In this document: piece after piece, positions 2,864 to 56,193 of the stretch | How positions within the stretch are numbered: position 1 is the first letter of the stretch | Layout of the letters: each line of letters begins with the position of its first letter | IMG/VR virus record: IMGVR_UViG_3300021225_000464 | Coordinates: 1-60,001 of that record | Reading direction: 5' to 3' (one strand) | Source: a virus | Lineage: Duplodnaviria; Caudoviricetes | Length of the DNA stretch: 60,001 bases | Position numbers and translations under genes: made by a program | The notes under the pieces: generated by a model | Databases searched by the model: none | The model's input: the letters and a program-made list of their open reading frames with translations, nothing else | What the model was told of the DNA's origin: nothing

Positions 2864-3456
2864 TTGAAAAAATAAAAGAACTTTATTGGACTAAAATTGG
2901 TTATAAAGTAAGAGGTTTTTTTACCTCTGTTGGTAATCTGATTAAGTGGTTTCCTGTTATTTGGAAAGACCGTGATTGGGACGACCATTATATTTTTGAG
3001 GTATTCAAGTTCAAGTTAGAAAAACAGGCTAAGTACATTAAAGAAAAAGGATTTCACACTAATTCAGACCTTGATGCTAAAAGAATGATGTTGTGTGTTA
3101 AACTGATGGAAAAAGTTCAGGAAGATTTTTATACCATGGAATACATGGATTATGAGGAAAAAGATTTTTTCTTTGTTCCGACAGGTGAAGGTATTGAAGA
3201 TGGTGAGGGTGGGTATTATATGGAGACACGTTTGAAAAAAGAAAATCTAAATGATTTTTTCAAAAAATATCCATTGGTGTATAAGAAAATTGTTACCAAT
3301 AAAAAGTATCATATTTTTAAAATGGACAACGAGGACTTAACTTCATACGAGGTTAAATCAAGAATTGCTTTGAATATCGGAAGATACAATCACGAAAGGG
3401 CTAGAAAGTTACTTTTCAAAATCTTGAGTGAGAATATTGAACGTTGGTGGAATTAA
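2860..3456 (+). CDS. Hypothetical phage protein
   Basis: 198-aa ORF with an ATGA overlap; WFPVIWKDRDWD...WW pattern seen in phage proteins. Confidence 0.7.
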   Translation: MIEKIKELYWTKIGYKVRGFFTSVGNLIKWFPVIWKDRDWDDHYIFEVFKFKLEKQAKYIKEKGFHTNSDLDAKRMMLCVKLMEKVQEDFYTMEYMDYEEKDFFFVPTGEGIEDGEGGYYMETRLKKENLNDFFKKYPLVYKKIVTNKKYHIFKMDNEDLTSYEVKSRIALNIGRYNHERARKLLFKILSENIERWWN

Positions 3457-3773
3457 TTTGAAGGTGTTTCTTCTTCAGTTGTTTCTTCTATCGGTTCAAT
3501 AATTGTTGTTTCATCAGAATTATCTTTTGATTTTCTATAACCTAAAAGAGTTGCTCCAATACCAACAAGGATGATTGATTGTGTAATAACATCAATATCT
3601 TTGTTTAAAAACATTTTATCTACACATCCCATAAAGAATGTTATCCCACCGATAAAAACGATGTAAAGACCTGCAGTTCCACTTCCTGATGTCTTTCCTG
3701 TGCTATTGGAAGTCATTTCAGCAAAAGAAAACTTTTTGATGTTTCCGATTTGTTTTTTAATATACTCTTTCAT
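3453..3773 (-). CDS. Small membrane protein (two TM helices)
   Basis: Hydrophobic segments GLYIVFIGGITFFMG and IILVGIGATLLGY. Confidence 0.7.
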   Translation of the reverse strand: MKEYIKKQIGNIKKFSFAEMTSNSTGKTSGSGTAGLYIVFIGGITFFMGCVDKMFLNKDIDVITQSIILVGIGATLLGYRKSKDNSDETTIIEPIEETTEEETPSN

Positions 3774-3776
3774 TTT

Positions 3777-3908
3777 TTACCTCCCTTGACCTTTATAAGG
3801 TTTTTTGTAATTCTTACTTGTTTTATTGGATGTAAATTTCTTTGATGATTTACCTGATTTCTTAACTCCGAATGATAACTTCGTTGAACCTGTTGATTTA
3901 GCTGCCAT
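3777..3908 (-). CDS. Small basic protein, 43 aa (not in ORF track)
   Basis: Manual translation MAAKSTGSTKLSFGVKKSGKSSKKFTSNKTSKNYKKPYKGQGR*; fills the gap exactly. Confidence 0.75.
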   Translation of the reverse strand: MAAKSTGSTKLSFGVKKSGKSSKKFTSNKTSKNYKKPYKGQGR

Positions 3909-3979
3909 TATTTTATTTATTTAGCAATAAGTATGTGATTTTTTTAAAATTGTATGTATTTATAAATAAAAATTAAATT

Positions 3980-4618
3980 ATGAAAAAATTATTAGATATT
4001 TCTTCTGAAGAAAGAAACAGAATTTTGGAAATGCATCAAAGTGCTACCAAGAGAAATTATTTGAGTGAACAATCAACTCAACAGGTAGCGGCTGGACCAA
4101 CAGTTAAAGGTGTTACTTATAAACTACAAGGGTTAACTGATAAAAATATTAATGATTTTTTGAATGTTACAAATAATGGTGGTTTGTGTGAATTTTTTGA
4201 CCCTGTTTTTTATGACATTCTTAATCAAACTAGAGATAAAAAAAATATGGTTGGTTGGGTTTCTTATTGCGGTACTCCAGACCCTGGTAATCCATGTTGT
4301 GACATGGTTTCTAATTTGAAAGATTATATAAATGTTTTGGCAAAATCATTTACCACAACTGAACAATTTAAAACATATCCATTTTCAAAATATATGGAAA
4401 CAGCGGCAAAAGGAAAAGTATTTAAAAGTCTTTGGACTCAAAAAATGAAAGACCTATTAGACCGAAGTGGAAATGGTAATTTATATGACGTAGCAAAGGC
4501 TAAACAATTATTAGGTACTAAAGGACAAAATCAAGGACAATCATTTGATAACTTAATTTTTAGTTTCCTTGTTAATCAACAGTTGGAAAAGGCAAAACTT
4601 CCTAAAATGACTGTTTAA
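3980..4618 (+). CDS. Putative head-packaged protein (cassette 1, late gene)
   Basis: Leader MKKLLDISSEERNRILEMH...YLSE|Q; TATTTAT at 3957-3963; Cys-containing body. Confidence 0.65.
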   Translation: MKKLLDISSEERNRILEMHQSATKRNYLSEQSTQQVAAGPTVKGVTYKLQGLTDKNINDFLNVTNNGGLCEFFDPVFYDILNQTRDKKNMVGWVSYCGTPDPGNPCCDMVSNLKDYINVLAKSFTTTEQFKTYPFSKYMETAAKGKVFKSLWTQKMKDLLDRSGNGNLYDVAKAKQLLGTKGQNQGQSFDNLIFSFLVNQQLEKAKLPKMTV

Positions 4619-4638
4619 TATAAAAATAATTAGAAATT

Positions 4639-4668
4639 AAAAAGGGAAGACGTGTCTTCCCTTTTTTT
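4639..4668. terminator. Bidirectional intrinsic terminator
   Basis: AAAAAGGGAAGA-CGTG-TCTTCCCTTTTTTT between convergent genes. Confidence 0.85.
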
Positions 4669-5101
4669 ATTTAATGGTGAATGTGACATCATCACCTTTT
4701 GAAAAAGAACCAAAAACTCTATTACCATCTTGGTATTCAGTGATAAACTCAAGAGTATCTTCATTTTCAATTTTACCAAGTGTGAAGTATGTTTTGGTAC
4801 CGTTATCATCAACAATACAATCAAAAACATTTTTTGTTTCAAAAATTTCAGTGATTGGGAAATCAAATTCCCCATTGAAATTAACTAGGTGAACTGTTTT
4901 TTTATTGAAGTCAAATGTGTAAACATTTTTCCCAATCCCATAGTCAGGATACTCTATCAAATCCATATCCATTGCCTGAAATGTTGGGACTAATGAACTG
5001 TGATTAAAATTTTGAAATTTTGTAGTTGTTACTGTAACAATTTGTCCATTAACAACTAAACTTGTTAGGGTAACTACTAAAGAAAGAAATAAGTTTTTCA
5101 T
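4667..5101 (-). CDS. Secreted beta-rich protein with Sec signal peptide (cassette 1)
   Basis: MKNLFLSLVVTLTSLVVNG|Q signal peptide with Gln at +1; TATATTTG on the minus strand at 5128-5135. Confidence 0.75.
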   Translation of the reverse strand: MKNLFLSLVVTLTSLVVNGQIVTVTTTKFQNFNHSSLVPTFQAMDMDLIEYPDYGIGKNVYTFDFNKKTVHLVNFNGEFDFPITEIFETKNVFDCIVDDNGTKTYFTLGKIENEDTLEFITEYQDGNRVFGSFSKGDDVTFTIK

Positions 5102-5174
5102 AGGACTTGATTATTTAATTATTTCTACAAATATACACAAAATATTCGTCCACACAAACATATTTATTAATAAA
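5081..5174. repeat. 94-bp direct repeat, copy 1 (divergent promoter block)
   Basis: Matches 6436-6529 with 4 mismatches. Contains the first 7 codons of the secreted gene, CAAATATA and TATTTAT. Confidence 0.95.
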
Positions 5175-5184
5175 ATATTTTATT

Positions 5185-5991
5185 ATGAAAAAAGTAATTA
5201 GACTAACTGAAAATGATTTAGTTAGAATTATAAAAAAAGTTATATCTGAACAAGATACAACACAAACTACTGGTACAACACAAACCACCACTCAAAGTCC
5301 TGATTTATCTAATTTAGGTATAAAAACACTTAATGGTGGTATTAAAGTTGTTGAGGTTCCTCAAAAACAAAGTCGTGATATAGAAAAAATTGCTAAACAA
5401 ACTGGCGATAAAGTTTATGGGGTAGGTAAATATGAAACAATAAGTTCAGTGGGTGGAAATTATCAGGGAATGCTTGTAGTTAAAAAAGAGGCGTATCAAA
5501 AATTATTATCAGACAAAGGTATTACTGTTGTGGAAGGGGAACATTGTTCTGAACCAAGATGGACAGGTAAAAAAGATAAAAATAATCCTACCGGTTGGGT
5601 GTACACATGGAAGGTAGGTAATGATTTTTCTAAATACGTTGTCAAACCATTACCATGGGATTTATTTAATAAAATACTTAATGAAAGAGGAACACCAGGA
5701 TGTCCTGACGATAGAGCAAATAGACACATGCATCCTAAACATAAAGGGGATTATTCAGGAGGTAATTTTACAGACCCAAAAGTAAGTCAAACGTCAAAGA
5801 ATTTCTTTAATGACCCAACCTCAAATTCAAATCTTAGAGCTTTTTGTAATAATTTAAAATCCACAAGTTTTTATCGTATTAATGGTTTTCCGGGTATATC
5901 GGCAAAATGTCCTGTATTTGTTGATGGTAGTGACGAAGATATGGAACGTTCATTTTCTACAAATGATTATATAAGGATTCAAGTTATTTAA
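5185..5991 (+). CDS. Putative head-packaged protein (cassette 2, late gene)
   Basis: Leader MKKVIRLTENDLVRIIKKVISE|Q, Thr-rich linker, four Cys; TATTTAT at 5161-5167. Confidence 0.65.
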   Translation: MKKVIRLTENDLVRIIKKVISEQDTTQTTGTTQTTTQSPDLSNLGIKTLNGGIKVVEVPQKQSRDIEKIAKQTGDKVYGVGKYETISSVGGNYQGMLVVKKEAYQKLLSDKGITVVEGEHCSEPRWTGKKDKNNPTGWVYTWKVGNDFSKYVVKPLPWDLFNKILNERGTPGCPDDRANRHMHPKHKGDYSGGNFTDPKVSQTSKNFFNDPTSNSNLRAFCNNLKSTSFYRINGFPGISAKCPVFVDGSDEDMERSFSTNDYIRIQVI

Positions 5992-5993
5992 TT

Positions 5994-6018
5994 AAAAACC
6001 CCTCTAACGAGGGGTTTT
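5994..6018. terminator. Bidirectional intrinsic terminator
   Basis: AAAAACCCCTC-TAAC-GAGGGGTTTT overlapping the stop of the minus-strand gene. Confidence 0.75.
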
Positions 6019-6456
6019 CTTTTTACATTTAACATCAAAACACATGTAACCTTCAGTAGTTTCATTATTAATGTCATACTCAACTAACATATTAACTGAT
6101 TTATTATCATTTTTGTAAAGAACTACAACACCTTTAAAACCTTTAGTATCAACACATTCAAAAGAAATTAAAATATCGTTTGATGGATTTTTGAATACCT
6201 CAGTGATAACAAAATTAAATACCACACCCTCGCCATTTTTCATAGTTAAAGATTCATTATCAACATCAATAGTGTAAACAACTTCCCCCTGACCAAGAGT
6301 GGTATATGTGATTAAACCATTTTCCAAAGATGGGATAAAATTAACTTCTTTTGGATGTTGAAATTTTTGGATAGTATCGGTTTTTACAACAAATACTTGA
6401 GAGTTAGCAACTAAACCAACCATCACTAAAACAAGAGAAAGAAATAAATTTTTCAT
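6004..6456 (-). CDS. Secreted beta-rich protein, paralog of 4667-5101 (cassette 2)
   Basis: MKNLFLSLVLVMVGLVANS|Q; shares YT.D....(T/S) and F.F.ITE.F motifs with the paralog; CAAATATA at 6483-6490. Confidence 0.75.
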   Translation of the reverse strand: MKNLFLSLVLVMVGLVANSQVFVVKTDTIQKFQHPKEVNFIPSLENGLITYTTLGQGEVVYTIDVDNESLTMKNGEGVVFNFVITEVFKNPSNDILISFECVDTKGFKGVVVLYKNDNKSVNMLVEYDINNETTEGYMCFDVKCKKKTPR

Positions 6457-6529
6457 AGGACTTGATTATTTAATTATTTCTACAAATATACACAAAATAT
6501 TCCTCCACACAAATATATTTATAAATAAA
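6436..6529. repeat. 94-bp direct repeat, copy 2
   Basis: Aligned by eye to 5081-5174, 1355 bp apart, 4 mismatches. Confidence 0.95.
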
Positions 6530-6570
6530 GTGAACTTTGTTCATAAACTTTAAACCCACGTTAATGGATA

Positions 6571-6774
6571 ATGACGAAAATGAAACGAATTCTAACGGAA
6601 AATGTTGCCACCTATTGCCTTATGCTCGCAATGTTTTTCAATCCACTAGGATTCGACATAATGTTCAAAGCAATTTTAGATTACACAAGTTCCTATTGGA
6701 TTACCACAGGAATTTTCTATTGTATTTCAGCATTATTCTTTGGGTTGTATTTCTTATTACGAAGTAAAAAATGA
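6571..6774 (+). CDS. Small two-TM membrane protein
   Basis: Two hydrophobic segments and a basic C-terminus; ATGA overlap with the next gene. Confidence 0.55.
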   Translation: MTKMKRILTENVATYCLMLAMFFNPLGFDIMFKAILDYTSSYWITTGIFYCISALFFGLYFLLRSKK

Positions 6775-7370
6775 ATATCAAAAAAATCATCAAAAAAGTT
6801 CTTAACGAGTCAGTGGAAAAACCACTTATCTCAGAACACCTTAATTATCATGTAACAAATGATATACCACTAAACGACAACATCTTCAGGTTTGGTTCAG
6901 AGGAGTTCTTCAATGTAATTAACGAAGCTCGTGAATTGTATTTTGAAGGAATGGTTGAATTAAATGAAGATGACGTTGAACTTGTTGAATCTGATTTTGG
7001 AAAACAAGTAAAATTATCAAGTGGAAGAGTTATTTACTTGGATACTCCTATGGAAGAAGAGTTTATTTCTGAAGCTGAGTATAACGGAAAAAAGGTAGAA
7101 CTTGGAAAACCAAGAAGAAACAGTGGTGGTGGGAAGAAATATGTTGTTTATGTAAAGAACCCATCAACAGGTAGAGTTAAGAAGATTTCATTTGGTGACG
7201 TTCATGGTGGGTTGACTGCTAAGGTATCTAACCCTAAAGCTCGTAAATCATTTGCTGCAAGACATCAGTGTTCTAAGAAGAAAGATAGATTAACTGCTGG
7301 TTATTGGGCATGTCGTTTGAACCGTTTTGGTTATTTGTGGGGTGGTAAAACTTATCCTGGATTTTGGTAA
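6771..7370 (+). CDS. Conserved phage protein: leader, acidic region, basic C-terminal domain
   Basis: MNIKKIIKKVLNE leader; after FISE|A comes KKYVVYVKN..KKISFGD..RKSFAARHQC..GYWAC. Confidence 0.7.
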   Translation: MNIKKIIKKVLNESVEKPLISEHLNYHVTNDIPLNDNIFRFGSEEFFNVINEARELYFEGMVELNEDDVELVESDFGKQVKLSSGRVIYLDTPMEEEFISEAEYNGKKVELGKPRRNSGGGKKYVVYVKNPSTGRVKKISFGDVHGGLTAKVSNPKARKSFAARHQCSKKKDRLTAGYWACRLNRFGYLWGGKTYPGFW

Positions 7371-8251: not shown

Positions 8252-8267
8252 TATATTTATAAATATA
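8252..8267. promoter_or_regulatory. Palindromic bidirectional late-promoter candidate
   Basis: Perfect palindrome TATATTTATAAATATA filling the 15-nt gap between divergent ATGs. Confidence 0.7.
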
Positions 8268-8869: not shown

Positions 8870-9102
8870 ATCTGAAACAACGGGTTTCTTTCACCAAAAT
8901 GTCCTCCGACAATATTATAGTAGTAATATTCTAAAGCGTCTTCATAAGACATATCTTTCTGTAATGATTCAAGTATCTTGTCACGGGAATAAAGTATTCT
9001 AACTCCATTACCAAATTCTTCTACGATACCTGTAATACAATCGTCAAATCCGTCTAATAGGATTGCACCTTCTGCTAATTCATCTACTTCTTCTCTTGTC
9101 AT
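8866..9102 (-). CDS. Conserved small phage protein
   Basis: LDGFDDCITG...EDALEYYYYNIVGG..GE..P.F pattern. Confidence 0.7.
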   Translation of the reverse strand: MTREEVDELAEGAILLDGFDDCITGIVEEFGNGVRILYSRDKILESLQKDMSYEDALEYYYYNIVGGHFGERNPLFQI

Positions 9103-9608
9103 TTGTTTTTGTATTGTTCTAATGAAATTCCTTCTGTGTCTTTATCACTAATCTTCATTTTAAAATTAAAACCTCTCATAAATTTTGAGATGATATCTTT
9201 AACTTCTTCTATTGTATCCCACTGAATACAACCTTCGTGTTCTTTTGAATATTCATTATCAACCAAGTAGTTAACAATTGTTCCACTTTGAAGTGTTAGG
9301 AACCCATGAGCATATCCTTTTGGGACATAAACCGCTTCACCTGATGTTAAAACAAATGTTTCTAATTTACCAAAGTCTTCACTTTCTTTATCCAAGTTAA
9401 CAACAAAATCAATTACTTTTCCTTGAATGACCGAAACCAATTTGGTTTGTGCCATTGGTTCTTCTTGATAATGTAATCCACGAAAGACAAAGATATCGTC
9501 GTTTATACTAATGTTTGATTGAACCCACTTGTCAGAAAGTTTGATTGGGGTAAAAGACCCACGATGGTCTTTAAAAACTGGTTGTAATAGTTGATAAGGT
9601 TTTTCCAT
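9099..9608 (-). CDS. rmlC: dTDP-4-dehydrorhamnose 3,5-epimerase
   Basis: FKDHRGSF, RGLHYQ, QTKLVSVIQG, VPKGYAHGFLTL, ISDKD. Confidence 0.9.
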   Translation of the reverse strand: MEKPYQLLQPVFKDHRGSFTPIKLSDKWVQSNISINDDIFVFRGLHYQEEPMAQTKLVSVIQGKVIDFVVNLDKESEDFGKLETFVLTSGEAVYVPKGYAHGFLTLQSGTIVNYLVDNEYSKEHEGCIQWDTIEEVKDIISKFMRGFNFKMKISDKDTEGISLEQYKNK

Positions 9609-9672: not shown

Positions 9673-10140
9673 ATGAGAAACGCATTTTTTTTGAATATTA
9701 CTAACGAAGAAAAACAATCAATCCAAGATAGACATAGAAGTTTATATGATGGATACTCAACAAATGGAGACACCTCTCCAAAAATGAATCAACTAAAAGT
9801 TGAGAACTTGGCGTTAGATGAAAAAGGAATTACTGTAAGTAATAGAGGTGATGTTAAAGAATATACTAACACAGAAGTTAATAGAAAACTTAAAAGTGTT
9901 TGTGAAGGTTGTGGTGGATTGTATGAAGGTGATATGTGTGAATGTGGTAATGGTAGAATGTATGAAGAAAAAAGTACTTGTAATGAGTGTGGTACTGAAA
10001 TGAAAGAAGGTGAACAATGTGAGTGTGGTACTCGTTATTCTATGGAAGAAATTGAAGAAGGTATTAAAATTAAGTCAAAGGCTTCTTTAGTACAAGAACA
10101 AATCAATGAATCACTTAAGTGGTTCAAGAAAATCATTTAA
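9673..10140 (+). CDS. Cys-rich putative head protein
   Basis: CxxC and CECG repeats; leader ITNEEKQSIQDRH; TATTTAT at 9649-9655. Confidence 0.65.
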   Translation: MRNAFFLNITNEEKQSIQDRHRSLYDGYSTNGDTSPKMNQLKVENLALDEKGITVSNRGDVKEYTNTEVNRKLKSVCEGCGGLYEGDMCECGNGRMYEEKSTCNECGTEMKEGEQCECGTRYSMEEIEEGIKIKSKASLVQEQINESLKWFKKII

Positions 10141-18338: not shown

Positions 18339-18412
18339 GCCTTCGTAGCTCAGTAGGATAGAGCAACAGATTTCTAATCTGTGGGTCAGGGGTTCGAATC
18401 CCTTCGGGGGTA
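18339..18412 (+). tRNA. tRNA-Arg(UCU), CCA not encoded
   Basis: Acceptor GCCTTCG/CGGGGGT, D-arm TAGCTCAGTAGGATAGAGC, anticodon arm ACAGA-TTTCTAA-TCTGT, T-loop GTTCGAATC; TATATTTG at 18319-18326. Confidence 0.95.
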
Positions 18413-18418
18413 CTATTT

Positions 18419-19875: not shown

Positions 19876-19889
19876 ATATTTATAAATAT
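19876..19889. promoter_or_regulatory. Palindromic bidirectional late-promoter candidate
   Basis: ATATTTATAAATAT in a 15-nt gap between divergent ATGs, same geometry as 8252-8267. Confidence 0.7.
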
Positions 19890-20812: not shown

Positions 20813-21207
20813 TGGTGGAGATGCCGGGGGTCGAACCCGGGTCCAAATATGTCGGACATAAAACACTACACGTTTAGGTCATTGTTTTTCTAAACAATCC
20901 GAAACTTCACAATTCCCTTATTTTATAGTGGTTCGGTTTACTGAGAACTAATCCTCCACTTTGTTTCTTTTCGGATAGAAACCACACCACAGTACAAGCT
21001 TCTGTTGCAAGGTTATATGCTCACCGACCCCGTTGTATACTAATCTTAGATTAGGCTACAGTTACTTCTTCAGTACGGATTAAACCGAGTGTAGAAAGTT
21101 TTGCAATTGTGTTGCCGTTTGTGTTTTAAACCAGTTTTACAGGGTTAGTTTAGCCCCGACGTGCGTTTTATGACAGATTCATACCTGTCAAATCCAAAAA
21201 CATCCCC
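20813..21207 (-). ncRNA. ssrA: tmRNA (395 nt); tag ORF at 21116-21051
   Basis: 5' GGGGATG...GGATTTGAC pairs with 3' CATCTCCACCA including the G3-U Ala determinant; T-arm CCGGGTTCGACCCCCGG; internal ORF GNTIAKLSTLGLIRTEEVTVA*; TATCTTTG element at 21230-21237. Confidence 0.93.
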
Positions 21208-23202: not shown

Positions 23203-23230
23203 AAAAAAAAGGGGTTTATTCCCCCTTTTT
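23203..23230. terminator. Probable bidirectional terminator
   Basis: A-tract-GGGG...CCCC-T-tract between convergent genes. Confidence 0.6.
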
Positions 23231-25279
23231 CTTTCTAGCTCTTTTTGGTTTTGGTGTTTCATCAGGTTGAGATTCAACTTCTGATATTGACACTTCTTCT
23301 TCATTTATTTCAATGTTGTAGAACTTATCAAGTACAATCTTTTCACGTAGTACTTCGTCAGAAATGTAATCTTCAATTTTTTCTTGAATTGCTCTTTTCA
23401 ATGGACGTGCACCATAGACTTCATCAAATCCAACTTTAGAAACAAAGTCAATTACTGATTGTCCGAAACTAATATTGTATCCCAAATTAGTCAAACGTGA
23501 TTTTAATTTGTTAATCTCAACCAAAACAATTTTTTGAATATCATCATTTTGAAGAGTGTTAAATACGATTACTTCATCTAAACGATTGATGAACTCAGGA
23601 GCAAAGTGGTTCTTCAATTCTTTGTTCAACATTGTCTTCTTCAACTCTTCATTGGCGTAAACGTTGTTGTTACCACTGAATCCGATACCTGCTCCGAACT
23701 CTTGCATCTTTTTTACACCTAAGTTTGAAGTCATGATAATCAAACAGTTTTTGAAATTGATTTTTCTTCCAAAACTATCTGTCATGTAACCTTCATCTAA
23801 TAGTTGGAGTAATGCTGAAAAGATATCTTTGTGTGCTTTCTCTACTTCATCAAATAATACTACAGAGTATGGTTTTGTTTTAACTTGTTCTGTAAGTTGT
23901 CCACCTTCATCATAACCTACATAACCAGGAGGTGAACCAATCAAACGAGATACTGTATGTTTCTCTTGGAATTCAGACATATCTACTCGGATAAGATTTT
24001 CATCACTACCAAAGATTTGTTTCGCCAATTCTTTTGCTAATAATGTCTTACCAACACCTGTTGAACCCAAGAAGATAAATGAACCAATTGGTTTATTTGG
24101 GTCTTTAATACCTAATCTGTTTCTACGGATTGATTTGGCAATCTTTGTGATTGCTTCTTTTTGTCCAACAACACATTTATTCAATTCTTCTTCTAAATTG
24201 ATAAGAGTGTTTTTATCATCCAAACTAAGTTTTGTTAGTGGGATTTTTGTCATCGTTGAAACAACTTCATAAACAAGTTCTTCAGAAATTGACTTTCTAT
24301 TTTCTAACAAAGTTTGTTCAAACTTTTTCTTTTCAATATCAAGTTGTGATAAAACTTTCTTTTCTTTATCTCTTAAGTTTGCGGCTTCCTCGTAGTTCTG
24401 TTTTTTAACTACAAGTAATTTCTGTTGTTTAATCTCTAATGCTTGACGTTTTAATTCGTCAATAATTTCAGGATTTTTAACATCTACCTGAGCTCTTGCT
24501 CCGACCTCATCCAAAATATCAAATGCTTTATCAGGAAACTCACGGTCTGTGATATATCGTTCAGCCAAATCAACACAGATTTGTAGAATTTCATCGGTAT
24601 AATTTACCTTGTGATAATTTTCGTATCTATCCTTAACATTTTTAAGGATTTGTAATGTTTCTTCTTTTGTTGAAGAACTAACAATTACTTTTTGGAAACG
24701 ACGGTCTAACGCTCCGTCTTTTTCAATTTGTTTTTTGTATTCATCCAATGTGGTTGCTCCAATACATTGTATTTCACCTCGTGAGAGAGCTGGTTTTAAG
24801 ATGTTGGACGCATCCATTGAACCTGAAGCATTACCTGCCCCAACAATCGTATGGATTTCATCAATGAAAAGAATAACATTTGGGTTTGCTTGAATTTCTT
24901 CCAAGATAACCTTTAATCTTTCTTCAAATTGTCCACGATACTTTGTTCCTGCGACAACCGAGTTCATCTCTAATGATAGGATACGTTTATCTACAAGATT
25001 TCTTGGACAATCGCCATCAAAAATCTTCATTGCTAATCCTTCTACGATTGCAGTTTTACCACAACCTGGTTCACCAATGATAATTGGGTTATTTTTCTTT
25101 CTTCTTGAAAGAATTTGTGCAATACGTAATATTTCGTCTTCCCTTCCGACAACGGGGTCTAACTTACCTTCTTCGGCAAGTTTAATAAGGTCACGACTAA
25201 AATTGTCTAACACAGGTGTAGAAGAGTTTGATTCTACTTTTTTTGGTGCTTTACCGCTTTCACCTACTGAATCTGTCAT
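23216..25279 (-). CDS. clpC: ClpC-type AAA+ unfoldase lacking the Clp-N domain
   Basis: Two AAA modules ([16 protein letters not shown]), UVR-like middle helix ([11 protein letters not shown]), IGF loop (GAGIGF). Start at MTDSV (25279); CAAATATA at 25328-25335. Confidence 0.9.
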
Positions 25280-25367
25280 AAAATAGTTTTTATTAAAATT
25301 AAATGAATTTGAACTTAAATTCAACTACAAATATAAATCAAAATTATTTATCATTAAAAAAAAAGTT

Positions 25368-28302: not shown

Positions 28303-29152
28303 GATAGGTTTTACTAAAGAAAATTTAAGTAAACAATCTCCAAAACAAATTAATACCTTATATGAATCTATGGTAAATGCCCATGGATTTGTTGGTTATG
28401 GTAAAATGAATAAACCTATTGGTATTATGAATTCAAAAGGTGAAACTAAAGAGGCTATTACTCAAACTAAAGATGTTACAACAACAACAAATATACCTTT
28501 ATCGGATATTCAAAATAAAGGAACAATAATTCCAAAATCAAATGACCCTAACAAACCATCAACCGCTAAAGTGGAAAACGGAGTTTTGAAAATATCAACA
28601 GCTGAAGGTGAAATGAAAGAAGGTAAAACAAGAAAAAAGAAAAAAGTTGAAAAAAATCCTTGGGCTATCTGTACATCATCATTAGGATTAGAAGGTAAAA
28701 AGAAAGATGACTATACTAAAGGTGAAGATAAAAAATTTGAAAGATGTGTTCTTGATGTCAAAAAGTCATTAAAAGAAGGTAAAAACCCATATGAAGTAAT
28801 CTTGGAACGAAAAATGAGAGATATCATTGAAGAAAATTTAAGACCTACTATGACTAAAAAAGATTTGATTAAAAGTATTTTAGAATCACAAACTAAAGAA
28901 AAAACTAAAGAAAAGGAAAAGACAAAAACTCCAACTAGAAGAAGTCCGTTCCAACCGGCTCCTAACACAGACCCAAAACCAAAAGGTTCAGGAACTAAAG
29001 AAAAGGAAAAAACTAAAGAGAAGGAAAAAACAACAACTCCAACTAGAAGAAGTCCGTTCCAGCCAGCTCCTAACACAGACCCAAGACCAAAAGGTGAATT
29101 ACCTGATTATTTAAGTTTTGGTAGTATGAATATTAAATTAAAAGGTGAGTAA
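28268..29152 (+). CDS. Basic putative core protein with NPWAICT module and internal duplication
   Basis: KNPWAICTSSLG...KFERCV; two copies of TKEK..TPTRRSPFQPAPNTDP.PKG. Confidence 0.6.
   Translation: MEIKKQIQKLVEIGFTKENLSKQSPKQINTLYESMVNAHGFVGYGKMNKPIGIMNSKGETKEAITQTKDVTTTTNIPLSDIQNKGTIIPKSNDPNKPSTAKVENGVLKISTAEGEMKEGKTRKKKKVEKNPWAICTSSLGLEGKKKDDYTKGEDKKFERCVLDVKKSLKEGKNPYEVILERKMRDIIEENLRPTMTKKDLIKSILESQTKEKTKEKEKTKTPTRRSPFQPAPNTDPKPKGSGTKEKEKTKEKEKTTTPTRRSPFQPAPNTDPRPKGELPDYLSFGSMNIKLKGE
28892..29095 (+). repeat. In-frame tandem duplication of about 100 bp
   Basis: Two copies of actccaactagaagaagtccgttcca..gctcctaacacagaccca..accaaaaggt. Confidence 0.9.
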
Positions 29153-30449
29153 GATGAAAAAAGAACAATTAGTAAGAAGATTGGTTAATCGTATTAATGA
29201 AGCACCTATTGGGTACGAAGGACCTGAGAGAATGGCTCCTGATATCCAATCTAAATTTGAAAAAGGTGAAACACCCCATTCGGGTAGTAAGGCATTTCCT
29301 GAAATTACACCTGAAGGACCAGATAAACCATCTAACTTTGAGCAACTTATTGCATCACAAAGATTTAAAGATGTTATTGGTAGATTAAAAAGATATACAG
29401 GTCTTCAAGATGTTACATCACAGAACTCAATGATGAGACTTCAAATGATGGTAATGAATGCTATGCAAGAAATTGCTCAGATTGAATCTGAAAACAAAGA
29501 ATATTTGGAAGAACTTGCAATTGAATTGGTACAAAAAGAATTTGGTATTCCTGAAGGAGCATTACAATATGATGTAAAGTTGGTTCAACCAAATGATATT
29601 GATTCAAGCAAGTTATCACCTAAAGGTGAGGAACCAAGTGAAGAGGAAATTGAAAATATGTTTGGTTCTGAAGAAGAACAAGAACAACTTGAAGATTTCA
29701 TGGATTCATTTGAAAAATTTGATTTGGAAAAGGCAAAAAGAAGATTTATCAACTCACTTATTCAAGGAGCAGCTAAACAATCTTCTTATATGTTTGAATT
29801 ATTAAACAGAGAGTTAAACGCTATCAACCCAAGATTGTTAAACATGTATGGTGTCTTTATGTCATTCGCAGATTCACTTTATTGGTTAATGCCTGACTCA
29901 ATGGTTCAAGGTATGGCTGGTGGCGGAGAATCTACTTATGGTATGTCAGAATTGGACGCTAAGACTGACCCACCAACAGTAAAAGCACGTGGTGTTAACT
30001 TACCAATCCTTATTCATGAACTTGCTAAAGGTGTTATGGAAATTGCTGGTACATACGGATTACCAAAAGATAAGACAAGACAAGAGGCGGTGATTAACTC
30101 ACAAGATACAGTTGTTGGTGAAATTTGGGACATGAGATTAGGTCCTGTTATTTGGCAAAAGTTCCGTGAGTCTTATCCTGATGAGTTGTTTGACGATGAT
30201 AAGAGAAACTTACAACAATATTTCCTTGTAAAGTTTGCTGAACTTACACCAAACGAATTCTTCAAAATGGCTCGTGAAATTTTATCAGGTTCACCAAAAG
30301 GGAAGAAAATGGTAAAAGACATGGTTGATGAAATCATAGAAGAATTAAAAGGATATGAGTATGAAGATACTATGAAGAAATATGAAGACGATGACGACGA
30401 TGATGATGAGGATTTTGATGATTTTTTAAAAGGATTAGGTATCAACTAA
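29145..30449 (+). CDS. Conserved hypothetical phage protein upstream of terminase
   Basis: 434 aa; leader LVRRLVNRINE|A; KRRFINSLIQG and IHELAKG motifs. Confidence 0.7.
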   Translation: MSKMKKEQLVRRLVNRINEAPIGYEGPERMAPDIQSKFEKGETPHSGSKAFPEITPEGPDKPSNFEQLIASQRFKDVIGRLKRYTGLQDVTSQNSMMRLQMMVMNAMQEIAQIESENKEYLEELAIELVQKEFGIPEGALQYDVKLVQPNDIDSSKLSPKGEEPSEEEIENMFGSEEEQEQLEDFMDSFEKFDLEKAKRRFINSLIQGAAKQSSYMFELLNRELNAINPRLLNMYGVFMSFADSLYWLMPDSMVQGMAGGGESTYGMSELDAKTDPPTVKARGVNLPILIHELAKGVMEIAGTYGLPKDKTRQEAVINSQDTVVGEIWDMRLGPVIWQKFRESYPDELFDDDKRNLQQYFLVKFAELTPNEFFKMAREILSGSPKGKKMVKDMVDEIIEELKGYEYEDTMKKYEDDDDDDDEDFDDFLKGLGIN

Positions 30450-36217: not shown

Positions 36218-36937
36218 ATGCAAAATTATAAAATATTAGGACCAAGAGAGACAGGAAAAGGTATTTTAATTGAAATGGATGCGGGATATGTTTCCCCAAC
36301 AGAAAAGAATAATCAAACATTTCTACAAGAGAGTAGAGACTTTAAAGATTATTCTAAACCATTTGAATTCTATGCCGTTCTACAAAAATATAACACACCA
36401 AATAGAAACGGTAGAATATATCCTGAAAGAATTCTAAAAAGAGAATCTGAAAATTATATAAAGAACTATATTGGTAAGAAAACTGCATTGTCAGAACTTA
36501 ACCACCCTGAGTCTTCATTAATAGATTTAGATAGAGTATCACACATGATTACAGAGATGTGGTGGGATGGTAATGTTCTATTAGGTAAACTATTACTTCT
36601 GACTTCACCAGGGTTCCATGAAAGAGGTATCGTATCAACAAAGGGTGACCAAGCGGCAAACCTATTAAGATTAGGTGTAACGTTAGGTATATCGTCAAGA
36701 GGGGTAGGTTCACTTAAAAAGGTTGGGGACCAAAACGAAGTACAGGATGATTTTGAATTAATTTGTTTTGACTTAGTGTCTTCACCATCAACACCAGGAG
36801 CTTATTTATTTACTGAACCTGATGGTAGATTTGCGTTTGAAGAAAACTTACAAGAAGAAAATGAAATGAAAGCTGCAAGAACAGTTAACAAATCGCTTGA
36901 TTTAATGGGAAGACTTACCGATTATTTAGGAAAATAA
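36218..36937 (+). CDS. Prohead core protease (T4 gp21-like)
   Basis: NRNGRIYP, ELNHP, VSH, GISSRGVGS, FDLVSSPSTPGA. Confidence 0.93.
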   Translation: MQNYKILGPRETGKGILIEMDAGYVSPTEKNNQTFLQESRDFKDYSKPFEFYAVLQKYNTPNRNGRIYPERILKRESENYIKNYIGKKTALSELNHPESSLIDLDRVSHMITEMWWDGNVLLGKLLLLTSPGFHERGIVSTKGDQAANLLRLGVTLGISSRGVGSLKKVGDQNEVQDDFELICFDLVSSPSTPGAYLFTEPDGRFAFEENLQEENEMKAARTVNKSLDLMGRLTDYLGK

Positions 36938-38680: not shown

Positions 38681-40543
38681 ATGGGAGCATTATTAGAAAG
38701 TGGATTAGTAGGTAACATCGGTCTTAAGCACTTGAAAGTTATCAAAGAAGACACTATAAACAAATGGGACAAATTAGGGTTCCTTGAAGGTCTTAGAGGC
38801 CACCTAAAAGAAAACGTTGCTCAGTTATATGAAAACCAAGCATCACATTTAATTAACGAAGCTACGACTGACGGAGCATCAGGTTCATTTGAAACTGTTG
38901 TATTCCCAATCATCAGACGTGTATTCTCTAAATTATTAGCTAACGAAATCGTTTCTGTACAAGCTATGAACTTACCAATTGGTAAATTGTTCTACTTTGT
39001 ACCTCAAATCCAAGGTTATACTGGTGCTACATCAACTCCAGGTGGTGTACCAGGTGTTGCTAATCACCAAGCTCCATATGGTTCTCCAAATGGACCATCA
39101 ACTCCAGGTGCTGGATATAATGATTCAAACGCATATCCTAAAAACCTTTATGATGCATTCTACGAAGGAACTGAGCCAGGGTTAAACCCAGGTGGTCTTT
39201 TTGATTATTCAAAAGGTGCATGGTATTGGGTGACAGGTGCAACTAACACTGTTGCTTGGTCAAACGGTACATTAATCTATTCAGCATACGGTGCTGGTGA
39301 ATATAGAAAAGTTCTTATCACTTTATCAGGTTTCACAAACGCTGGTGAGGGTAAATTAATTGCTCCTGATGGACAAGAAATGGATACTGAAACATTCTTA
39401 TCTGATTTAACACTTTTCCCATCACAAGGTTTGGCTAACCAAATCAATACTTCAGGTGGAAATGTTGGACTTTATACTCCACTTTTATATCGTGTTGTGA
39501 CACAAAAATATGGTAAAGGTATTGTACAGTACGGTAGTACTCAATCAACTACTTTCCCTGATATCCCACGTGGTACTGTGTCTTACCCAGGTAACGGTGG
39601 TTCTTATAATAATGTATGTTCTCAAGATGGTAACATCATCTTAGAAATTGACTTACAAGTTCCAGCATGTATTTCTTGTAGTCAATCAACTCCTGATGGA
39701 TACACAGGAACAACTATCTTAGCTGGTTCAGGTGCTACTAACGATTCATTCGTTAAGGCATATTGGAAGCGTTACCAAGAAATGGAATTTGAAGACAGAA
39801 TTGGTGAAGTTTCTTTTGACCTTCAATCAGTAACAGTTTCTGTAACTGAAAGAAAGTTAAGAGCACAATGGTCTCCAGAACTTGCTCAAGACGTTGCGGC
39901 GTTCCACAACATTGATGCTGAAGCTGAATTAACAGCTTTATTATCTGAACAAGTTGCTGCTGAAATTGACCGTGAAATCTTACGTGACTTACGTAAAGGT
40001 GCAGCGTGGACATTACGTTGGGATTACAACGGATGGAAGCGTCTGAATAACCAATCAACTCCTTATACTCAAAAGGACTGGAATCAAACGTTGATTACTG
40101 CAATCAACCAAATTTCAGCTCAAATCCACAAGTCTACTTTAAGAGGTGGAGCAAACTGGATTGTTGTATCTTCTGAAATCAGTGCTATTTTTGATGACTT
40201 GGAATACTTCCACGTATCAAACGCGGCTCCTGAGCAAGACCAATTCAACATGGGTATTGAAAGAGTTGGTACTTTAAGTGGTCGTTACCAAGTATACCGT
40301 GACCCATACTTCCCACCAAACACTGTGTTGATTGGTCACAAAGGTACTTCTTTATTGGATACTGGATATATCTACGCTCCATACGTACCACTACAATTAA
40401 CTCCAACTATGTATAACCCATTCAACTTTACTCCAATCAAGGGTATTATGACACGTTACGCTAAGAAAATGGTTAATAACCGTTTCTACGGACGTATCAT
40501 CGTTGACGGTGTTCGTACATTTGACTTAAACGAATTAAGATAA
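38681..40543 (+). CDS. Major capsid protein (T4 gp23-like)
   Basis: VSVQAMNLP.G..FY, RKLRAQWSPELAQD, EIDREI, YAPYVPL, GIMTRY; probable maturation site LINE|ATT. Confidence 0.97.
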   Translation: MGALLESGLVGNIGLKHLKVIKEDTINKWDKLGFLEGLRGHLKENVAQLYENQASHLINEATTDGASGSFETVVFPIIRRVFSKLLANEIVSVQAMNLPIGKLFYFVPQIQGYTGATSTPGGVPGVANHQAPYGSPNGPSTPGAGYNDSNAYPKNLYDAFYEGTEPGLNPGGLFDYSKGAWYWVTGATNTVAWSNGTLIYSAYGAGEYRKVLITLSGFTNAGEGKLIAPDGQEMDTETFLSDLTLFPSQGLANQINTSGGNVGLYTPLLYRVVTQKYGKGIVQYGSTQSTTFPDIPRGTVSYPGNGGSYNNVCSQDGNIILEIDLQVPACISCSQSTPDGYTGTTILAGSGATNDSFVKAYWKRYQEMEFEDRIGEVSFDLQSVTVSVTERKLRAQWSPELAQDVAAFHNIDAEAELTALLSEQVAAEIDREILRDLRKGAAWTLRWDYNGWKRLNNQSTPYTQKDWNQTLITAINQISAQIHKSTLRGGANWIVVSSEISAIFDDLEYFHVSNAAPEQDQFNMGIERVGTLSGRYQVYRDPYFPPNTVLIGHKGTSLLDTGYIYAPYVPLQLTPTMYNPFNFTPIKGIMTRYAKKMVNNRFYGRIIVDGVRTFDLNELR

Positions 40544-40870: not shown

Positions 40871-41836
40871 ATGAAAAGTAACCATCTGTTAGAAATATTA
40901 AAAAAATTAAAAGAATATGATAACTACATATCTGAAGCAACAACTTCAGGAGGTTCAGGTAGTTTTAGAGTACCTTTAAGACCCGGTTTTAAATTATGGG
41001 ACAAAGATACTTTAGAACCTTTTACTTTATCTTTAAATGGTTATGACAATGCTGAAATATATGTTGATTCTTTAGATGGTAATATTGAAACTAAAGGTGT
41101 TAAAAGAAAAGAAGAAATGTCAGTGGCCATATCAAAATCAGATAAAAGAAATCCTATCTTAAATGATGATGATGGAAGTGATTTAAATGATAATCCACCT
41201 AACAAAAAATTACTTAAAAAAGTTTTTGGTAAGAAAAAAATTAAAGAGGCAACTGATGCCACTGTAAGTTCTGGTGAATATAATGCACCTGCAGAATTTA
41301 AAAAACCCAAATGGGATAAACATGTGTTATCACCATTTTTAATTGATTCTGAACATGAACATAATAAAATTGTAAATAAAAAAGAAATACAAGGAAAAAT
41401 ATCTTTTAAACATGGTTATAACGAAAAAGACCATCCAAATAAAGGTAAATCAAAACATATTATAACACCAACAGAAAATAAAGATGTTGTTAATGAAGAT
41501 TTAGGTGTTTGGTTTGGTAAAAAGAAAAAACCTAAAGGAAGCAAACAACCAAAAGGTCCTTGGGTTAATATATGTAAAAAAGTAGATGGTAAACACCCGC
41601 CTTGTGGTAGACCTGATACTTCTAAAGGAGCTTATCCTAAATGTCGTGCAGCTGGAGTTGCGGGAAAAATGTCTGATTCCGCAAAACGTGCCGCTTGTCA
41701 ACAAAAAAGAAAGGCGGAAAAACAAGATACTCAAACAGGAAAGGGACAAAAACCAATTATGACATCATATAAGCCTAAAAAGAAAAAGACCAACGAATCG
41801 GTCTTAATCAATTTAATTAGAAAGGCTTTAGATTAA
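40871..41836 (+). CDS. Modular putative head protein with basic Cys domain
   Basis: Two I-x-E|AT..SG repeats; VNE|DLGVWF...WVNI...PCGR...YPKCR domain. Confidence 0.65.
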   Translation: MKSNHLLEILKKLKEYDNYISEATTSGGSGSFRVPLRPGFKLWDKDTLEPFTLSLNGYDNAEIYVDSLDGNIETKGVKRKEEMSVAISKSDKRNPILNDDDGSDLNDNPPNKKLLKKVFGKKKIKEATDATVSSGEYNAPAEFKKPKWDKHVLSPFLIDSEHEHNKIVNKKEIQGKISFKHGYNEKDHPNKGKSKHIITPTENKDVVNEDLGVWFGKKKKPKGSKQPKGPWVNICKKVDGKHPPCGRPDTSKGAYPKCRAAGVAGKMSDSAKRAACQQKRKAEKQDTQTGKGQKPIMTSYKPKKKKTNESVLINLIRKALD

Positions 41837-42088: not shown

Positions 42089-42493
42089 TTAACAATTTAT
42101 TTTACTATAAATATTATCAAGTGAGTGATTTATTTGAGTTTCAAGTTCTTTTTCAATATTCATTGCTCTTAACTCCATTTCTTTACGAAAATAATTAATA
42201 AGTTTTTCCCACTGAGTACTACTTAATTTGATAAAATAACTGTAGGTATGATTTGTAACCGTAACTTGTCCACCATCCATTGTAATAAAAATACCTAATC
42301 TATCATTTCGGATATATTTTTTATCAGATATAGGGGCAATAATTAGTTCAGAATCTTCTGAATGGATGAGTTTTCTACATATAGTGGAACATTTCCTCAC
42401 GTTTGACATATATATGTCAAATTCGGTGTCCTTTCGGTCTAATTTACGTAAATATAGACGATATTTAACCCACAGTTTTTTAATTATAGTCAT
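42089..42493 (-). CDS. Hypothetical protein
   Basis: 134 aa; CAAATATA at 42513-42520 upstream. Confidence 0.65.
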   Translation of the reverse strand: MTIIKKLWVKYRLYLRKLDRKDTEFDIYMSNVRKCSTICRKLIHSEDSELIIAPISDKKYIRNDRLGIFITMDGGQVTVTNHTYSYFIKLSSTQWEKLINYFRKEMELRAMNIEKELETQINHSLDNIYSKINC

Positions 42494-42551: not shown

Positions 42552-43088
42552 TTAACAATATGCCCCTGAACAATGTTTTTTCCCATCTAAACCTGGCATA
42601 CGTCCTTTACAAACTTGTACAGCATAACCATTAGCATAAGCTGAAGGATATACGTCAAATTTTGATTTAGCGGCAGCCTTACCACGAGCACATAATTTAG
42701 TACCTGCCTTTTTACGACCTTCAGTCATAGATGTCATAGATAATCCCAGTGCTTTATTAGGGTCCATTCCATCCGCCTCATCTGCAAGAGCTAAATCATC
42801 AAAATTAATATTTTCAATAACCTCTTCAGATTTCCACATGTCACCACTTTTTGTTTCATTCATTAAGAAATCAAAAACTTGGTCCATATTATTTTTGGCT
42901 TCAGCAATGTGGTCTTGAGCCCAATCGTGCCCATTAGATAGAATTTTTTCAACCATATCATGGTCTAAATCTAATAATAATCCACATTGTCTTTTCATTT
43001 GTTCTAAATTACTGAAAAACATATATCTTTCAGATTCTTCTTTAAGTACTTTTTTAATTATGTTATTTAAATTTTTCATATTACGCAA
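42552..43088 (-). CDS. Putative head protein with C-terminal YPSAYA (DUF5872-like) module
   Basis: MKNLNNIIKKVLKEE leader; KLCARGKAAAKSKFDVYPSAYANGYAVQVCKG. Confidence 0.65.
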   Translation of the reverse strand: MRNMKNLNNIIKKVLKEESERYMFFSNLEQMKRQCGLLLDLDHDMVEKILSNGHDWAQDHIAEAKNNMDQVFDFLMNETKSGDMWKSEEVIENINFDDLALADEADGMDPNKALGLSMTSMTEGRKKAGTKLCARGKAAAKSKFDVYPSAYANGYAVQVCKGRMPGLDGKKHCSGAYC

Positions 43089-43599
43089 TCATATCATCTT
43101 CTTTTAGGTCATTACAGACAACATCCAAAAACACTTCAATATCGTGTTCTAATCCTTCATAATCTTCAAATACATTAGTCCCTTCGGTTGTGTTTTCAAA
43201 CATACAAGTTTGAAAATTACCTTCTGTATCACAGTAAATTTCACCATAATAATCACTATCATCAACTGTTAGATATCCTGTATGTATTTTTTCATCTTCA
43301 GTATCTTGTGTTGATTCATATCTAAATTTAAACGATGGCATTCCTGGAAATTCAAAAGACCAAAAACCACCAGCTTTTGTCATAAAATCATCTTTAGATG
43401 ATGGTTCATCTTCTATTGATATACCTTTAGTAAATTTCTGAAGAGTTTCTTTTTCTTCAGGTGTGATTGATTCCATACCTGATTGACTAATTTTATCTAA
43501 AATTACATCAATTTTATCCTCACCTGGTTGTAATGCTTCGGATAATACAAATTTCAATAATTTTATATATTCGCCCTCTTTTAATGTTACTTTTTTCAT
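43081..43599 (-). CDS. Hypothetical protein with leader
   Basis: MKKVTLKEGEYIKLLKFVLSE|A; IDVILDKISQSGMESITPEEK motif. Confidence 0.65.
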   Translation of the reverse strand: MKKVTLKEGEYIKLLKFVLSEALQPGEDKIDVILDKISQSGMESITPEEKETLQKFTKGISIEDEPSSKDDFMTKAGGFWSFEFPGMPSFKFRYESTQDTEDEKIHTGYLTVDDSDYYGEIYCDTEGNFQTCMFENTTEGTNVFEDYEGLEHDIEVFLDVVCNDLKEDDMIA

Positions 43600-49214: not shown

Positions 49215-49952
49215 TTAGTCAGGATTTACCTGTATTAATCCAGTATACAATTTTTTGAATTTTTTCATTGAAGCTCTTATTTCTTTTGTTGACATGTTTG
49301 TCATTTCACGTAAAGATAAAAGGATGACATTTTTATTAAATTTATTATTATCAGTTGCTGGAAAAATAGTTTCGTAGTTTTCTAAAATCTCAACTAAAGA
49401 TAATCCTAATTTAAGTTCACTTTCATTTAATTCATTTTCCTCAATGATTTCTTTAATATAATCAATAAGAATTGGTATAAGATTAACTTCCTCAGGTTGC
49501 TCAATATCTAAATAATAAATCATTTGAGGTGCGTTTTCTAAATCACCTGAAATATCTTCATATGATATTTTTCTATTTGTTTCTTTTTGGTCTTTTAATA
49601 TTTGACCCATTAAATAGTTTTTACAAATAGTACCAAAATACGAATAGGCTTTCTTTTCTTTTGAAGGACTAAATTTATCAATTTTAGTCATTAAAAATGA
49701 ATGAGTATCAGTATGAATTTCATAAAAATCCATGTCTTTTCTATATAATTTATATCTTCTAATAATTGAAGATATCATCTTATCTAATGGAAATCTTAAA
49801 AACTCATTATAAATTTTATTTTTTTCCTCAAAAGTAGAAGCAGTCAGGAACATTCTGACTGCGTTCTCTTCTCTTATGTCAAAGTAGTTTTCAGTGCTCT
49901 GTTTTTTCTTTTTAGTAACAGAAATCTCTATTGAGCTTGCGCTTAGTATCAT
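49215..49952 (-). CDS. Late sigma factor (T4 gp55-like)
   Basis: N-terminal NYF and region-2-like KIDKFSPSKEKKAYSYFGTICKN, similar to the gp55 F.P.K....FAYFT.I..N pattern. Confidence 0.65.
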   Translation of the reverse strand: MILSASSIEISVTKKKKQSTENYFDIREENAVRMFLTASTFEEKNKIYNEFLRFPLDKMISSIIRRYKLYRKDMDFYEIHTDTHSFLMTKIDKFSPSKEKKAYSYFGTICKNYLMGQILKDQKETNRKISYEDISGDLENAPQMIYYLDIEQPEEVNLIPILIDYIKEIIEENELNESELKLGLSLVEILENYETIFPATDNNKFNKNVILLSLREMTNMSTKEIRASMKKFKKLYTGLIQVNPD

Positions 49953-50758: not shown

Positions 50759-50760
50759 AA

Positions 50761-51819: not shown

Positions 51820-51822
51820 AGT

Positions 51823-55269: not shown

Positions 55270-55322
55270 TAAATGTTTTTTAGTTTAAATAACACAGTAA
55301 TTGTATTACCGTACATATTTTT

Positions 55323-56189: not shown

Positions 56190-56193
56190 ATTT

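Follow-up and report, generated by a model that had tools for sequence, protein, structure and literature searches.

A probable cargo-cassette locus in an uncultured T4-like phage: leader-bearing genes paired with genes for predicted exported proteins and joined at a conserved repeat

In polymorphic toxin-immunity systems a constant N-terminal delivery part is joined to a variable C-terminus and accompanied by an adjacent, co-varying small partner, with alleles being exchanged at conserved junctions. The internal proteins of the T-even phages (IPI, IPII, IPIII and Alt) are described as highly diverse proteins in which the capsid targeting sequence (CTS) is the sole conserved part, and as cargo that reaches the cytoplasm together with the DNA (PMC3012670). 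The CTS itself is presented as a propeptide of 10-20 residues that loads proteins into the prohead (PMC5694885), and T4-type prohead proteases are reported to cleave after Glu behind a short motif (PMC9026906). In the T4-type coliphages, insertions, deletions and replacements of ORFans in hyperplastic regions are marked by promoter-early stem-loop elements (PeSLs), conserved intergenic composites that measure about 100 bp and carry an early promoter of host type (PMC2839356, PMC4122927), whilst an early periplasmic protein of T4, Spackle (gp61.3), is reported to bind the virion-borne lysozyme gp5 (PMC7677548). Here we describe a locus with points of likeness to each of these, a tandem pair of two-gene cassettes in a 60,001-nt stretch of the IMG/VR virus record IMGVR_UViG_3300021225_000464; this whole stretch is called the window, and all coordinates are positions in it. 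On balance it is probably a hyperplastic cargo-cassette locus, in which a leader-tagged cargo and an exported partner are swapped at a repeat and at the leader.

Each unit of the pair consists of a plus-strand gene with an N-terminal leader, a terminator and a convergent gene for a protein with a signal peptide, and the repeat joins one unit to the next. A sequence-only reading made beforehand had proposed such a tandem duplicated two-gene unit; the unit is real, and its gene order, motifs, hairpins and repeat are as that reading gave them. The features of the locus and its flanks, together with the protease of the head module, are as follows.

3453..3908, minus strand: conserved left flank, small genes 3453-3773 and 3777-3908, 84-88% nucleotide identity to the relative L003
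3957..3968, plus strand: TATTTATAAATA, late-promoter-like motif (TATTTAT at 3957-3963), 16 nt upstream of the geneA ATG
3980..4618, plus strand: geneA, 212 aa, with leader A, a Q/T-rich linker and a body with four conserved Cys
3980-4069, plus strand: leader A, geneA residues 1-30, ending NYLSE
4639..4666, both strands: intrinsic-terminator-like bidirectional hairpin between the convergent genes, its 12-bp stem scored on both strands
4667..5101, minus strand: secA, 144 aa, of a small beta-barrel family, mature part beginning with Q
5042-5101, minus strand: predicted Sec/signal peptidase I signal peptide of secA
5076..5174: repeat copy 1 (R1), with the first 26 nt of secA, the 5' untranslated region, the minus-strand host-type promoter motif and a plus-strand TATTTAT
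5128..5158, minus strand: TTTG-N19-TATATTTG, putative promoter of secA, like a Bacteroidota sigma-A promoter (-33/-7)
5161..5167, plus strand: TATTTAT, 17 nt upstream of the geneB ATG
5185..5991, plus strand: geneB, 268 aa, with leader B, a T/Q linker and a body with invariant C121, C173, C221 and C242
5185-5250, plus strand: leader B, geneB residues 1-22, ending KVISE
5995..6018, plus strand: terminator-like hairpin overlapping the 3' end of secB
6004..6456, minus strand: secB, 150 aa, mature part a predicted 8-stranded beta-barrel
6397-6456, minus strand: predicted signal peptide of secB, MKNLFLSLVLVMVGLVANS, with Q next
6431..6529: repeat copy 2 (R2), with the minus-strand promoter motif at 6483-6513 and TATTTAT at 6516-6522
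6571..7370, plus strand: conserved right flank, geneC (6571-6774) and geneD (6771-7370), 97-99% and 94-99% amino acid identity across loci
36218..36937, plus strand: gp21-type prohead serine protease (Pfam PF03420, Peptidase_S77, E 9.4e-27)

The two 99-nt copies of the repeat (5076-5174 and 6431-6529) are 94% identical and spaced 1355 nt apart. BLAST of the record against itself aligned 5081-5174 with 6436-6529, 94 nt at 96% identity, in agreement with the 90 identities in 94 positions counted earlier, and revealed no copy beyond these two in the 60-kb record. The conserved block of most relatives measures about 150 nt and spans the entire signal peptide; R1 of the window is shorter because the secA signal peptide has diverged. 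The exported proteins had been called divergent paralogs, and secA and secB are indeed 36% identical over 134 aa (E 6e-19). The plus-strand proteins had been thought unrelated, which holds for their bodies (BLASTP best E 0.12 for geneA against geneB) but not for their leaders: profile-profile comparison, in which nothing but the leader aligns, shows leaders A and B to be homologous (residues 1-30 against 1-37, probability 95%, with an 8-residue insertion). Terminator-like hairpins are enriched, six being found against 1.1 expected in shuffles.

The likeness to the T-even internal proteins lies in a gp21-type protease, in a leader that is the sole conserved part of fast-evolving, mutually unrelated proteins and ends in Glu, in what may be a cleavage motif, and in a locus that is polymorphic among close relatives, as the T-even literature cited here describes (PMC3012670, PMC9026906). 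The differences, taking the T-even CTS as it is described, are that the leader has 22-30 residues, exists as two homologues and precedes a T/Q linker, that the host is probably one of the Bacteroidota, and that the putative cargo gene is paired with a convergent gene for a predicted exported protein. With PeSLs the locus shares a conserved intergenic composite of about 100 bp, a putative host-type early promoter and a hyperplastic region, and the ends of indels and replacements between relatives fall at the repeat, as they do at PeSLs. The repeat, however, has no stem-loop, the terminators sit between the convergent genes, the block includes signal-peptide coding sequence and a second, late-type promoter motif on the opposite strand, a coding leader forms the other edge of recombination, and the promoter consensus is TAnnTTTG, not that of sigma-70. 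The pairing of an early periplasmic protein with a virion-borne one recalls Spackle and gp5, although no sequence or fold similarity to them was found, gp5 is a tail protein and not CTS cargo, and binding between the cassette partners is hypothetical. To our knowledge the Spackle gene and gene 5 do not form adjacent swappable cassettes. In layout (constant leader, variable body, co-varying partner) the cassettes resemble polymorphic toxin-immunity loci, but the searches recognised no toxin domain, and the partner, a convergent gene with its own promoter, apparently codes for an exported protein; delivery would be by the virion. The locus looks like hypervariable, CTS-tagged internal proteins combined with recombination at conserved promoter cassettes, both themes being known from T4; a description of the pairing of cargo and exported partner was not found in a keyword search of open-access text.

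The anatomy set out above is observed, and comparison with other contigs likewise shows a mosaic of conservation, the replacement of alleles and co-variation of partners at the level of classes. A 49-nt core of the repeat occurs exactly in 12 other viral contigs, and a 28-nt core in 60 stretches of 50 other IMG/VR contigs, ten of them with two copies, which places the repeat beyond chance. Between the window and a relative of the same layout (L003), nucleotide identity is 84-96% in the flanks, 95-98% in the intergenic repeat, 82-92% in the leaders and 85-93% in the signal-peptide codons, but 74-76% in the exported mature parts and only 55% and 62% in the two bodies; over this comparison and others, flanks, repeat and leaders span 82-98%, whereas cassette bodies are 55-76% identical or replaced. 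The product of 3453-3773, in the left flank, retains 91-94% amino acid identity across loci. In L004/L007 the right-flank proteins are 98-99% identical to those of the window, against 51% for geneB and 74% for secB. Other relatives differ in layout: L005/L012 have a single cassette with the B body fused to leader A, the first cassette of L008, L010, L013 and L014 is of another kind, a body of 231 aa paired with an exported protein of 168 aa, and L009 lacks the B cassette and has two tandem geneA bodies (leader A on the first, leader B on the second) beside one secA. The tandem geneA-body duplicate with a single secA is recorded for L009/L086. Crossovers can be placed inside the repeat, since its right-hand part segregates with the gene on that side. 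Contigs from four lake metagenome runs covered the cassette bodies thinly and gave a few low-depth joints, at 3988->5184, 3809->5160 and 4927->6383 (sides of 22-31 nt, 88% likeness), and loose ends at 3988, 5181/5182 and 5220; joints and ends alike accord with leaders held in common beside neighbours that vary, but they are too faint to serve as evidence.

To establish whether partners stay together, contexts identical over +/-300 nt were collapsed, which left 39 repeat contexts, the window's two included; the exported gene is complete in 35 of the 39 and both genes are complete in 32, seven contexts cut by contig ends being left out of the pair count. The exported proteins form four unrelated families, S0 (the barrel family of secA and secB), S1, S2 and S3 (CAP-domain proteins), with 11 subtypes at 60% identity, and the bodies of the leader proteins form nine unrelated clusters. 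Each exported subtype goes with a single body cluster in 32/32 complete pairs, and body cluster P2 pairs with three S1 subtypes. The gene across the repeat, on the other hand, is not constant: it may be geneC, a gene with leader B or leader A, or another, and nine different exported subtypes have been found in the slot adjoining geneC. Since the partners are constant while the cross-repeat gene and the leader type vary, the comparison supports body plus exported gene as the unit of exchange, with the leader and the repeat as its edges; and with the repeat 95-98% identical where the bodies are 55-62%, it behaves as an exchange junction. The sequence-only reading is borne out here in part: cassette number and content vary among relatives, with one or two exact repeat cores per contig and bodies replaced, partners co-vary, the independent assortment that would have contradicted it is not seen (no subtype has two partner classes), and the proposed role of the repeat as a recombination point accords with the identities just given.

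It may be envisaged that the leader gene is transcribed late from the TATTTAT promoter and that its helical leader of 22-30 residues, which ends [I/L]-S-E and is followed by Q, a T/Q-rich linker and a hypervariable body, would, like the T4 CTS to which we compare it, direct the protein into the prohead. A gp21-type protease would remove the leader after Glu, and the body would ride in the virion. The convergent gene, with its host-type -33/-7 promoter, would be expressed early and would yield a small protein exported by way of Sec and signal peptidase I. The 94-99-nt repeat would be a composite cassette junction, made up of signal-peptide start, 5' untranslated region, early promoter and late promoter, and together with the leader DNA it would provide homology for the exchange, deletion and addition of whole cassettes, as PeSLs do in T4-type coliphages. 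Promoter timing, export, packaging and cleavage are the steps that we infer. A more elaborate scheme, which is speculative and in our judgement unlikely, would have the locus encode a polymorphic phage-against-phage system: the virion protein would act on the host envelope at entry and the cognate early exported protein would neutralise the same cargo, the infected cell excluding, or outliving repeated attack by, phages of its own cassette type only, and frequency-dependent competition would keep at least 11 alleles, swapped at the promoter, signal-peptide and leader junctions.

The timing of expression can be approached through the promoter motifs. Of the 64 genes, 21 have TATTTAT within 45 nt upstream, where 1.1 would be expected and 2000 random draws gave at most 5; the genes for terminase, portal, a core protein, protease and scaffold are among the 21, which makes the motif a good late-promoter candidate. 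The TATTTAT of R2 lies about 48 nt before the gene at 6571. In each repeat copy TTTG-N19-TATATTTG stands on the minus strand, 26 nt before the ATG of the exported gene, and a like host-type motif is found upstream of an HNH gene, a ClpB-like gene and the gene at 42089-42493. A late role for TATTTAT and a host-type early role for TTTG-N19-TAnnTTTG are plausible. The T4 late-promoter word TATAAATA was considered and rejected: it is enriched (25 against 13.6), yet the oriented motif is TATTTAT, and the enrichment arises mostly because the word is the reverse complement of TATTTATA. The palindrome TATTTATAAATA also lies at 8254-8265 and 19877-19888, between the divergent pairs 7631-8251/8267-8869 and 19110-19874/19890-20783, where it may be a two-way late promoter. 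A 240,759-bp relative (82% complete by estimate), which carries the same locus, also has partial matches to the promoter and untranslated part of the repeat (30-53 nt, 80-90%) at G001:C1 26548-26578, 27649-27700 and 225760-225796, which suggests an early promoter module common to other genes of that phage.

The case for export rests on the N-termini of the convergent genes. secA and secB both begin MKNLFLSLV..., followed by a hydrophobic core and then Q, and Q20 is invariant in 33/33 aligned exported sequences, after a K-rich n-region and the hydrophobic core. A Q-rule has been described for the Bacteroidetes, with Gln at +1 of proteins exported through signal peptidase I (PMC5837995, PMC10653852), and the invariant Q20 fits it; secA and secB are probably exported by Sec and signal peptidase I. 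The AlphaFold2 model of secB, with a predicted local distance difference test score (pLDDT) of 85.5, is a confident 8-stranded barrel with generic matches only, to lipocalin-like and 8-stranded folds (best Z 8.6). A profile search with the exported family gave 165 representatives at E up to 1e-3, and ten distant clusters consist of metagenomic proteins without names, one odd label excepted, and so give no lead on function. On the other strand, the geneA and geneB families each have four conserved Cys, a feature of five of the nine body clusters, whereas several clusters have 0-1 Cys. The geneB model (pLDDT 73.7) found no fold match in the PDB by Foldseek (best E 0.28), in VIA (best Z 4.1) or in BFVD (best E 0.11), and the ESM Atlas contained no match for either body. 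Searches of Pfam, PHROG and PADLOC placed neither the four proteins of the window nor those of seven other cassette pairs in a family with significance, apart from a CAP domain on one exported type (PF00188, E 8.7e-10) and two weak PHROG matches, and family and fold searches revealed no defence, toxin, lysozyme or enzymatic family or fold in any cassette body. An OmpA-like motif in two larger bodies was not confirmed, there being no Pfam match and no PDB sequence match at E up to 5. At the nucleotide level, 3900-6600 matches nothing in the phage collection. Genes of the geneB type have a ratio of non-synonymous to synonymous substitution rates (dN/dS) of about 0.5, those of the secB type one of 0.05-0.3, and purifying selection on both families argues that both are real genes.

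Leader A occurs on ten body clusters among the 70 database proteins that match geneA, its DNA is conserved at synonymous sites too, and the leader type may vary on one and the same body (P0, 11 B and one A; P1, three A and one B). In the model of geneB the leader forms a helix at residues 9-23, followed by a disordered T/Q linker (pLDDT <50 at residues 21-38). Both leaders end in I/L-S-E followed by Q, and in the phage's own capsid protein LINE|A stands immediately before the block aligned to T4 gp23 residues 82-126. By analogy with the T4 CTS, a capsid-targeting propeptide would be the best reading of the leader. A similar amphipathic helix ending [I/L/V]-x-E is found at 560-877, 6771-7370, 9673-10140, 29145-30449, 40871-41836, 42552-43088 and 43081-43599, and Glu-ended motifs in other N-termini of the window are YINE, VLNE, RINE, YISE, VLKE and VLSE; many proteins may be packed by means of leader-like N-termini.

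A number of observations weigh against the proposed exchange of head-borne cargo with exported partners. In L017/L020 the body has 45-47% identity to other alleles, against 89-91% between their secB and that of the main allele group (overall r 0.74, over 66 non-independent pairs), and the inequality in L017, 47% for the body and 89% for secB, argues against tight one-to-one co-evolution. Partner co-variation is, moreover, what linkage alone would give, and the idea that the partners act together is the weakest step of the explanation. Four of 21 non-redundant leader-A genes have neither an exported partner nor the repeat nearby. The [I/L]-x-E motif is so short that chance matches are expected often, and hidden Markov models of the leaders match four other N-termini of the window weakly (E 0.014-0.08). 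The host-type motif TTTG-N18-20-TAnnTTTG is weakly enriched, with seven matches, two of them the sec genes, against 3.1 expected, and three of 100 shuffles reach seven. No stem-loop was found in the repeat, folding of 5042-5184 (minus strand) giving z -0.17 with 77/200 shuffles folding equally well or better, and no cultured close relative was found, the closest cultured phages by capsid, Microcystis phage Mel-JY01 and Flavobacterium phage immuto, being 42% identical. As a side observation, L084, L085, L096 and L101 represent another locus, at which a leader-A gene of 151-185 aa is followed by a plus-strand gene with a leader-like N-terminus (MGNIILTENQYSRIK...) and from which the exported gene and the repeat are both absent.

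An important consideration is whether the two genes of a cassette need have anything to do with one another. It is a real possibility, though one that we would place below an even chance, that the two are functionally independent, one encoding a cargo like the internal proteins and the other an early envelope protein that is exported and might, for instance, exclude superinfecting phages by itself or modify the cell surface, and that they travel together only because recombination is confined to the leader and repeat that bracket them. The co-variation may be plain linkage in this sense because there is no conserved sequence between the two cassette genes, where even the terminators are cassette-specific, and the uncoupled divergence in L017/L020, the 4/21 leader genes without a partner and the two geneA bodies with one secA in L009 all point the same way; PeSL shuffling is likewise reported to move unrelated ORFans (PMC2839356). 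A purely mechanical process should nevertheless leave some mixed or single-gene cassettes, of which there are none among the 32 complete ones, and the bipartite layout recurs with nine unrelated body clusters and four unrelated exported families, a regularity that, if the main reading is right, points to a coupled function at the cell envelope. That function might be that of a cognate effector and neutraliser, Spackle-like or polymorphic-toxin-like, with the body acting in the periplasm or envelope and the early exported partner binding and blocking the same-type cargo of later phages, competition driving the turnover of alleles. This suggestion we regard as doubtful. The class-level co-variation in 32/32 pairs, promoter motifs that would make the partner early and the cargo late, four conserved Cys in 5/9 body clusters, which would suit extracytoplasmic life, fast evolution of the bodies (dN/dS ~0.5), a CAP-domain protein as one exported type and the T4 precedent of Spackle and gp5 (PMC7677548) are in its favour, but in several body clusters there are only 0-1 Cys, the partners diverge at uncoupled rates, T4 CTS cargo is described as going to the cytoplasm with the DNA (PMC3012670), and no body shows an enzymatic, toxin or lysozyme family or fold, although a missing match does not exclude one.

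Two further alternatives concern the conserved elements themselves. The leader may have nothing to do with capsids, being instead a conserved N-terminal helix for docking to a common partner or an mRNA or translation-initiation module, in which case the plus-strand proteins would be late non-virion proteins. Its synonymous-site conservation is what recombination or an RNA-level constraint would give, and it is longer than the T4 CTS as described (PMC5694885); yet the phage encodes a gp21-type protease, the Glu-ended motif also precedes the mature capsid block, a disordered linker follows the leader, and many unrelated bodies carry it, as with the T-even CTS, all of which makes this alternative improbable. 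It is far less credible still that the repeat is a mere remnant of a recent tandem duplication with no role in exchange. Two tandem copies 1355 nt apart beside paralogous exported genes might give that impression, but the paralogs are 36% identical against 94-96% for the repeat, in 50 contigs this block adjoins exported families that are unrelated to one another, and its right part co-segregates with the right-hand gene, with crossovers inside.

If the locus does exchange leader-tagged cargo together with exported partners, the capsid-loading leader and the promoter-mediated shuffling of T4 would extend to giant freshwater phages of another phylum, and an exported partner with every cargo allele would be a feature beyond the descriptions of T4 cited here. 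The cassettes give a testable set of protein pairs, and their conserved junctions would be natural insertion sites for foreign genes, if such phages were cultured.

Judged by its genes, the window is a fragment of an uncultured T4-like jumbo phage (60 kb, completeness estimated at 20%). It contains a head module of T4 type, with terminase, portal, S77 prohead protease and Gp23-like capsid protein recognised by Pfam (Portal_T4, 3.8e-75; Gp23, 2e-71; Terminase_6N, 1.1e-11). The host is probably a freshwater member of the Bacteroidota, because of the putative TTTG-N19-TAnnTTTG promoters and the invariant Gln after the predicted signal peptide. The Gp23-like capsid protein (38681-40543, 620 aa) aligns to T4 gp23 only over residues 61-105 and ~373-594, and the unaligned stretch of about 270 residues between the two blocks looks like an insertion.

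On the right flank, 3' of R2, geneC is a third gene with a leader-like N-terminus and encodes a 67-aa two-helix membrane protein. Two plus-strand open reading frames of about 67-76 aa overlap at 6537-6774; among nine homologous sequences the differences are 72 synonymous and 13 non-synonymous in the 6571 frame, against 34 and 51 in the other frame, and 6571-6774 is therefore the real gene frame. Elsewhere in the window there is a full-length transfer-messenger RNA gene at 20813-21207 on the minus strand (Rfam RF00023, 132 bits; ARAGORN tag peptide AKLSTLGLIRTEEVTVA) and a tRNA-Arg(TCT) at 18339-18413 on the plus strand. A sugar-modification block at 9099-9608 and 49215-59320 (minus strand), with PhoH nearby, comprises a dTDP-sugar epimerase, a GDP-mannose 4,6-dehydratase, several glycosyltransferases (families 2, 11 and 17) and a methyltransferase. 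A ClpB/Hsp104-like double AAA+ ATPase is encoded at 23216-25324 on the minus strand and is preceded by two TAnnTTTG motifs.

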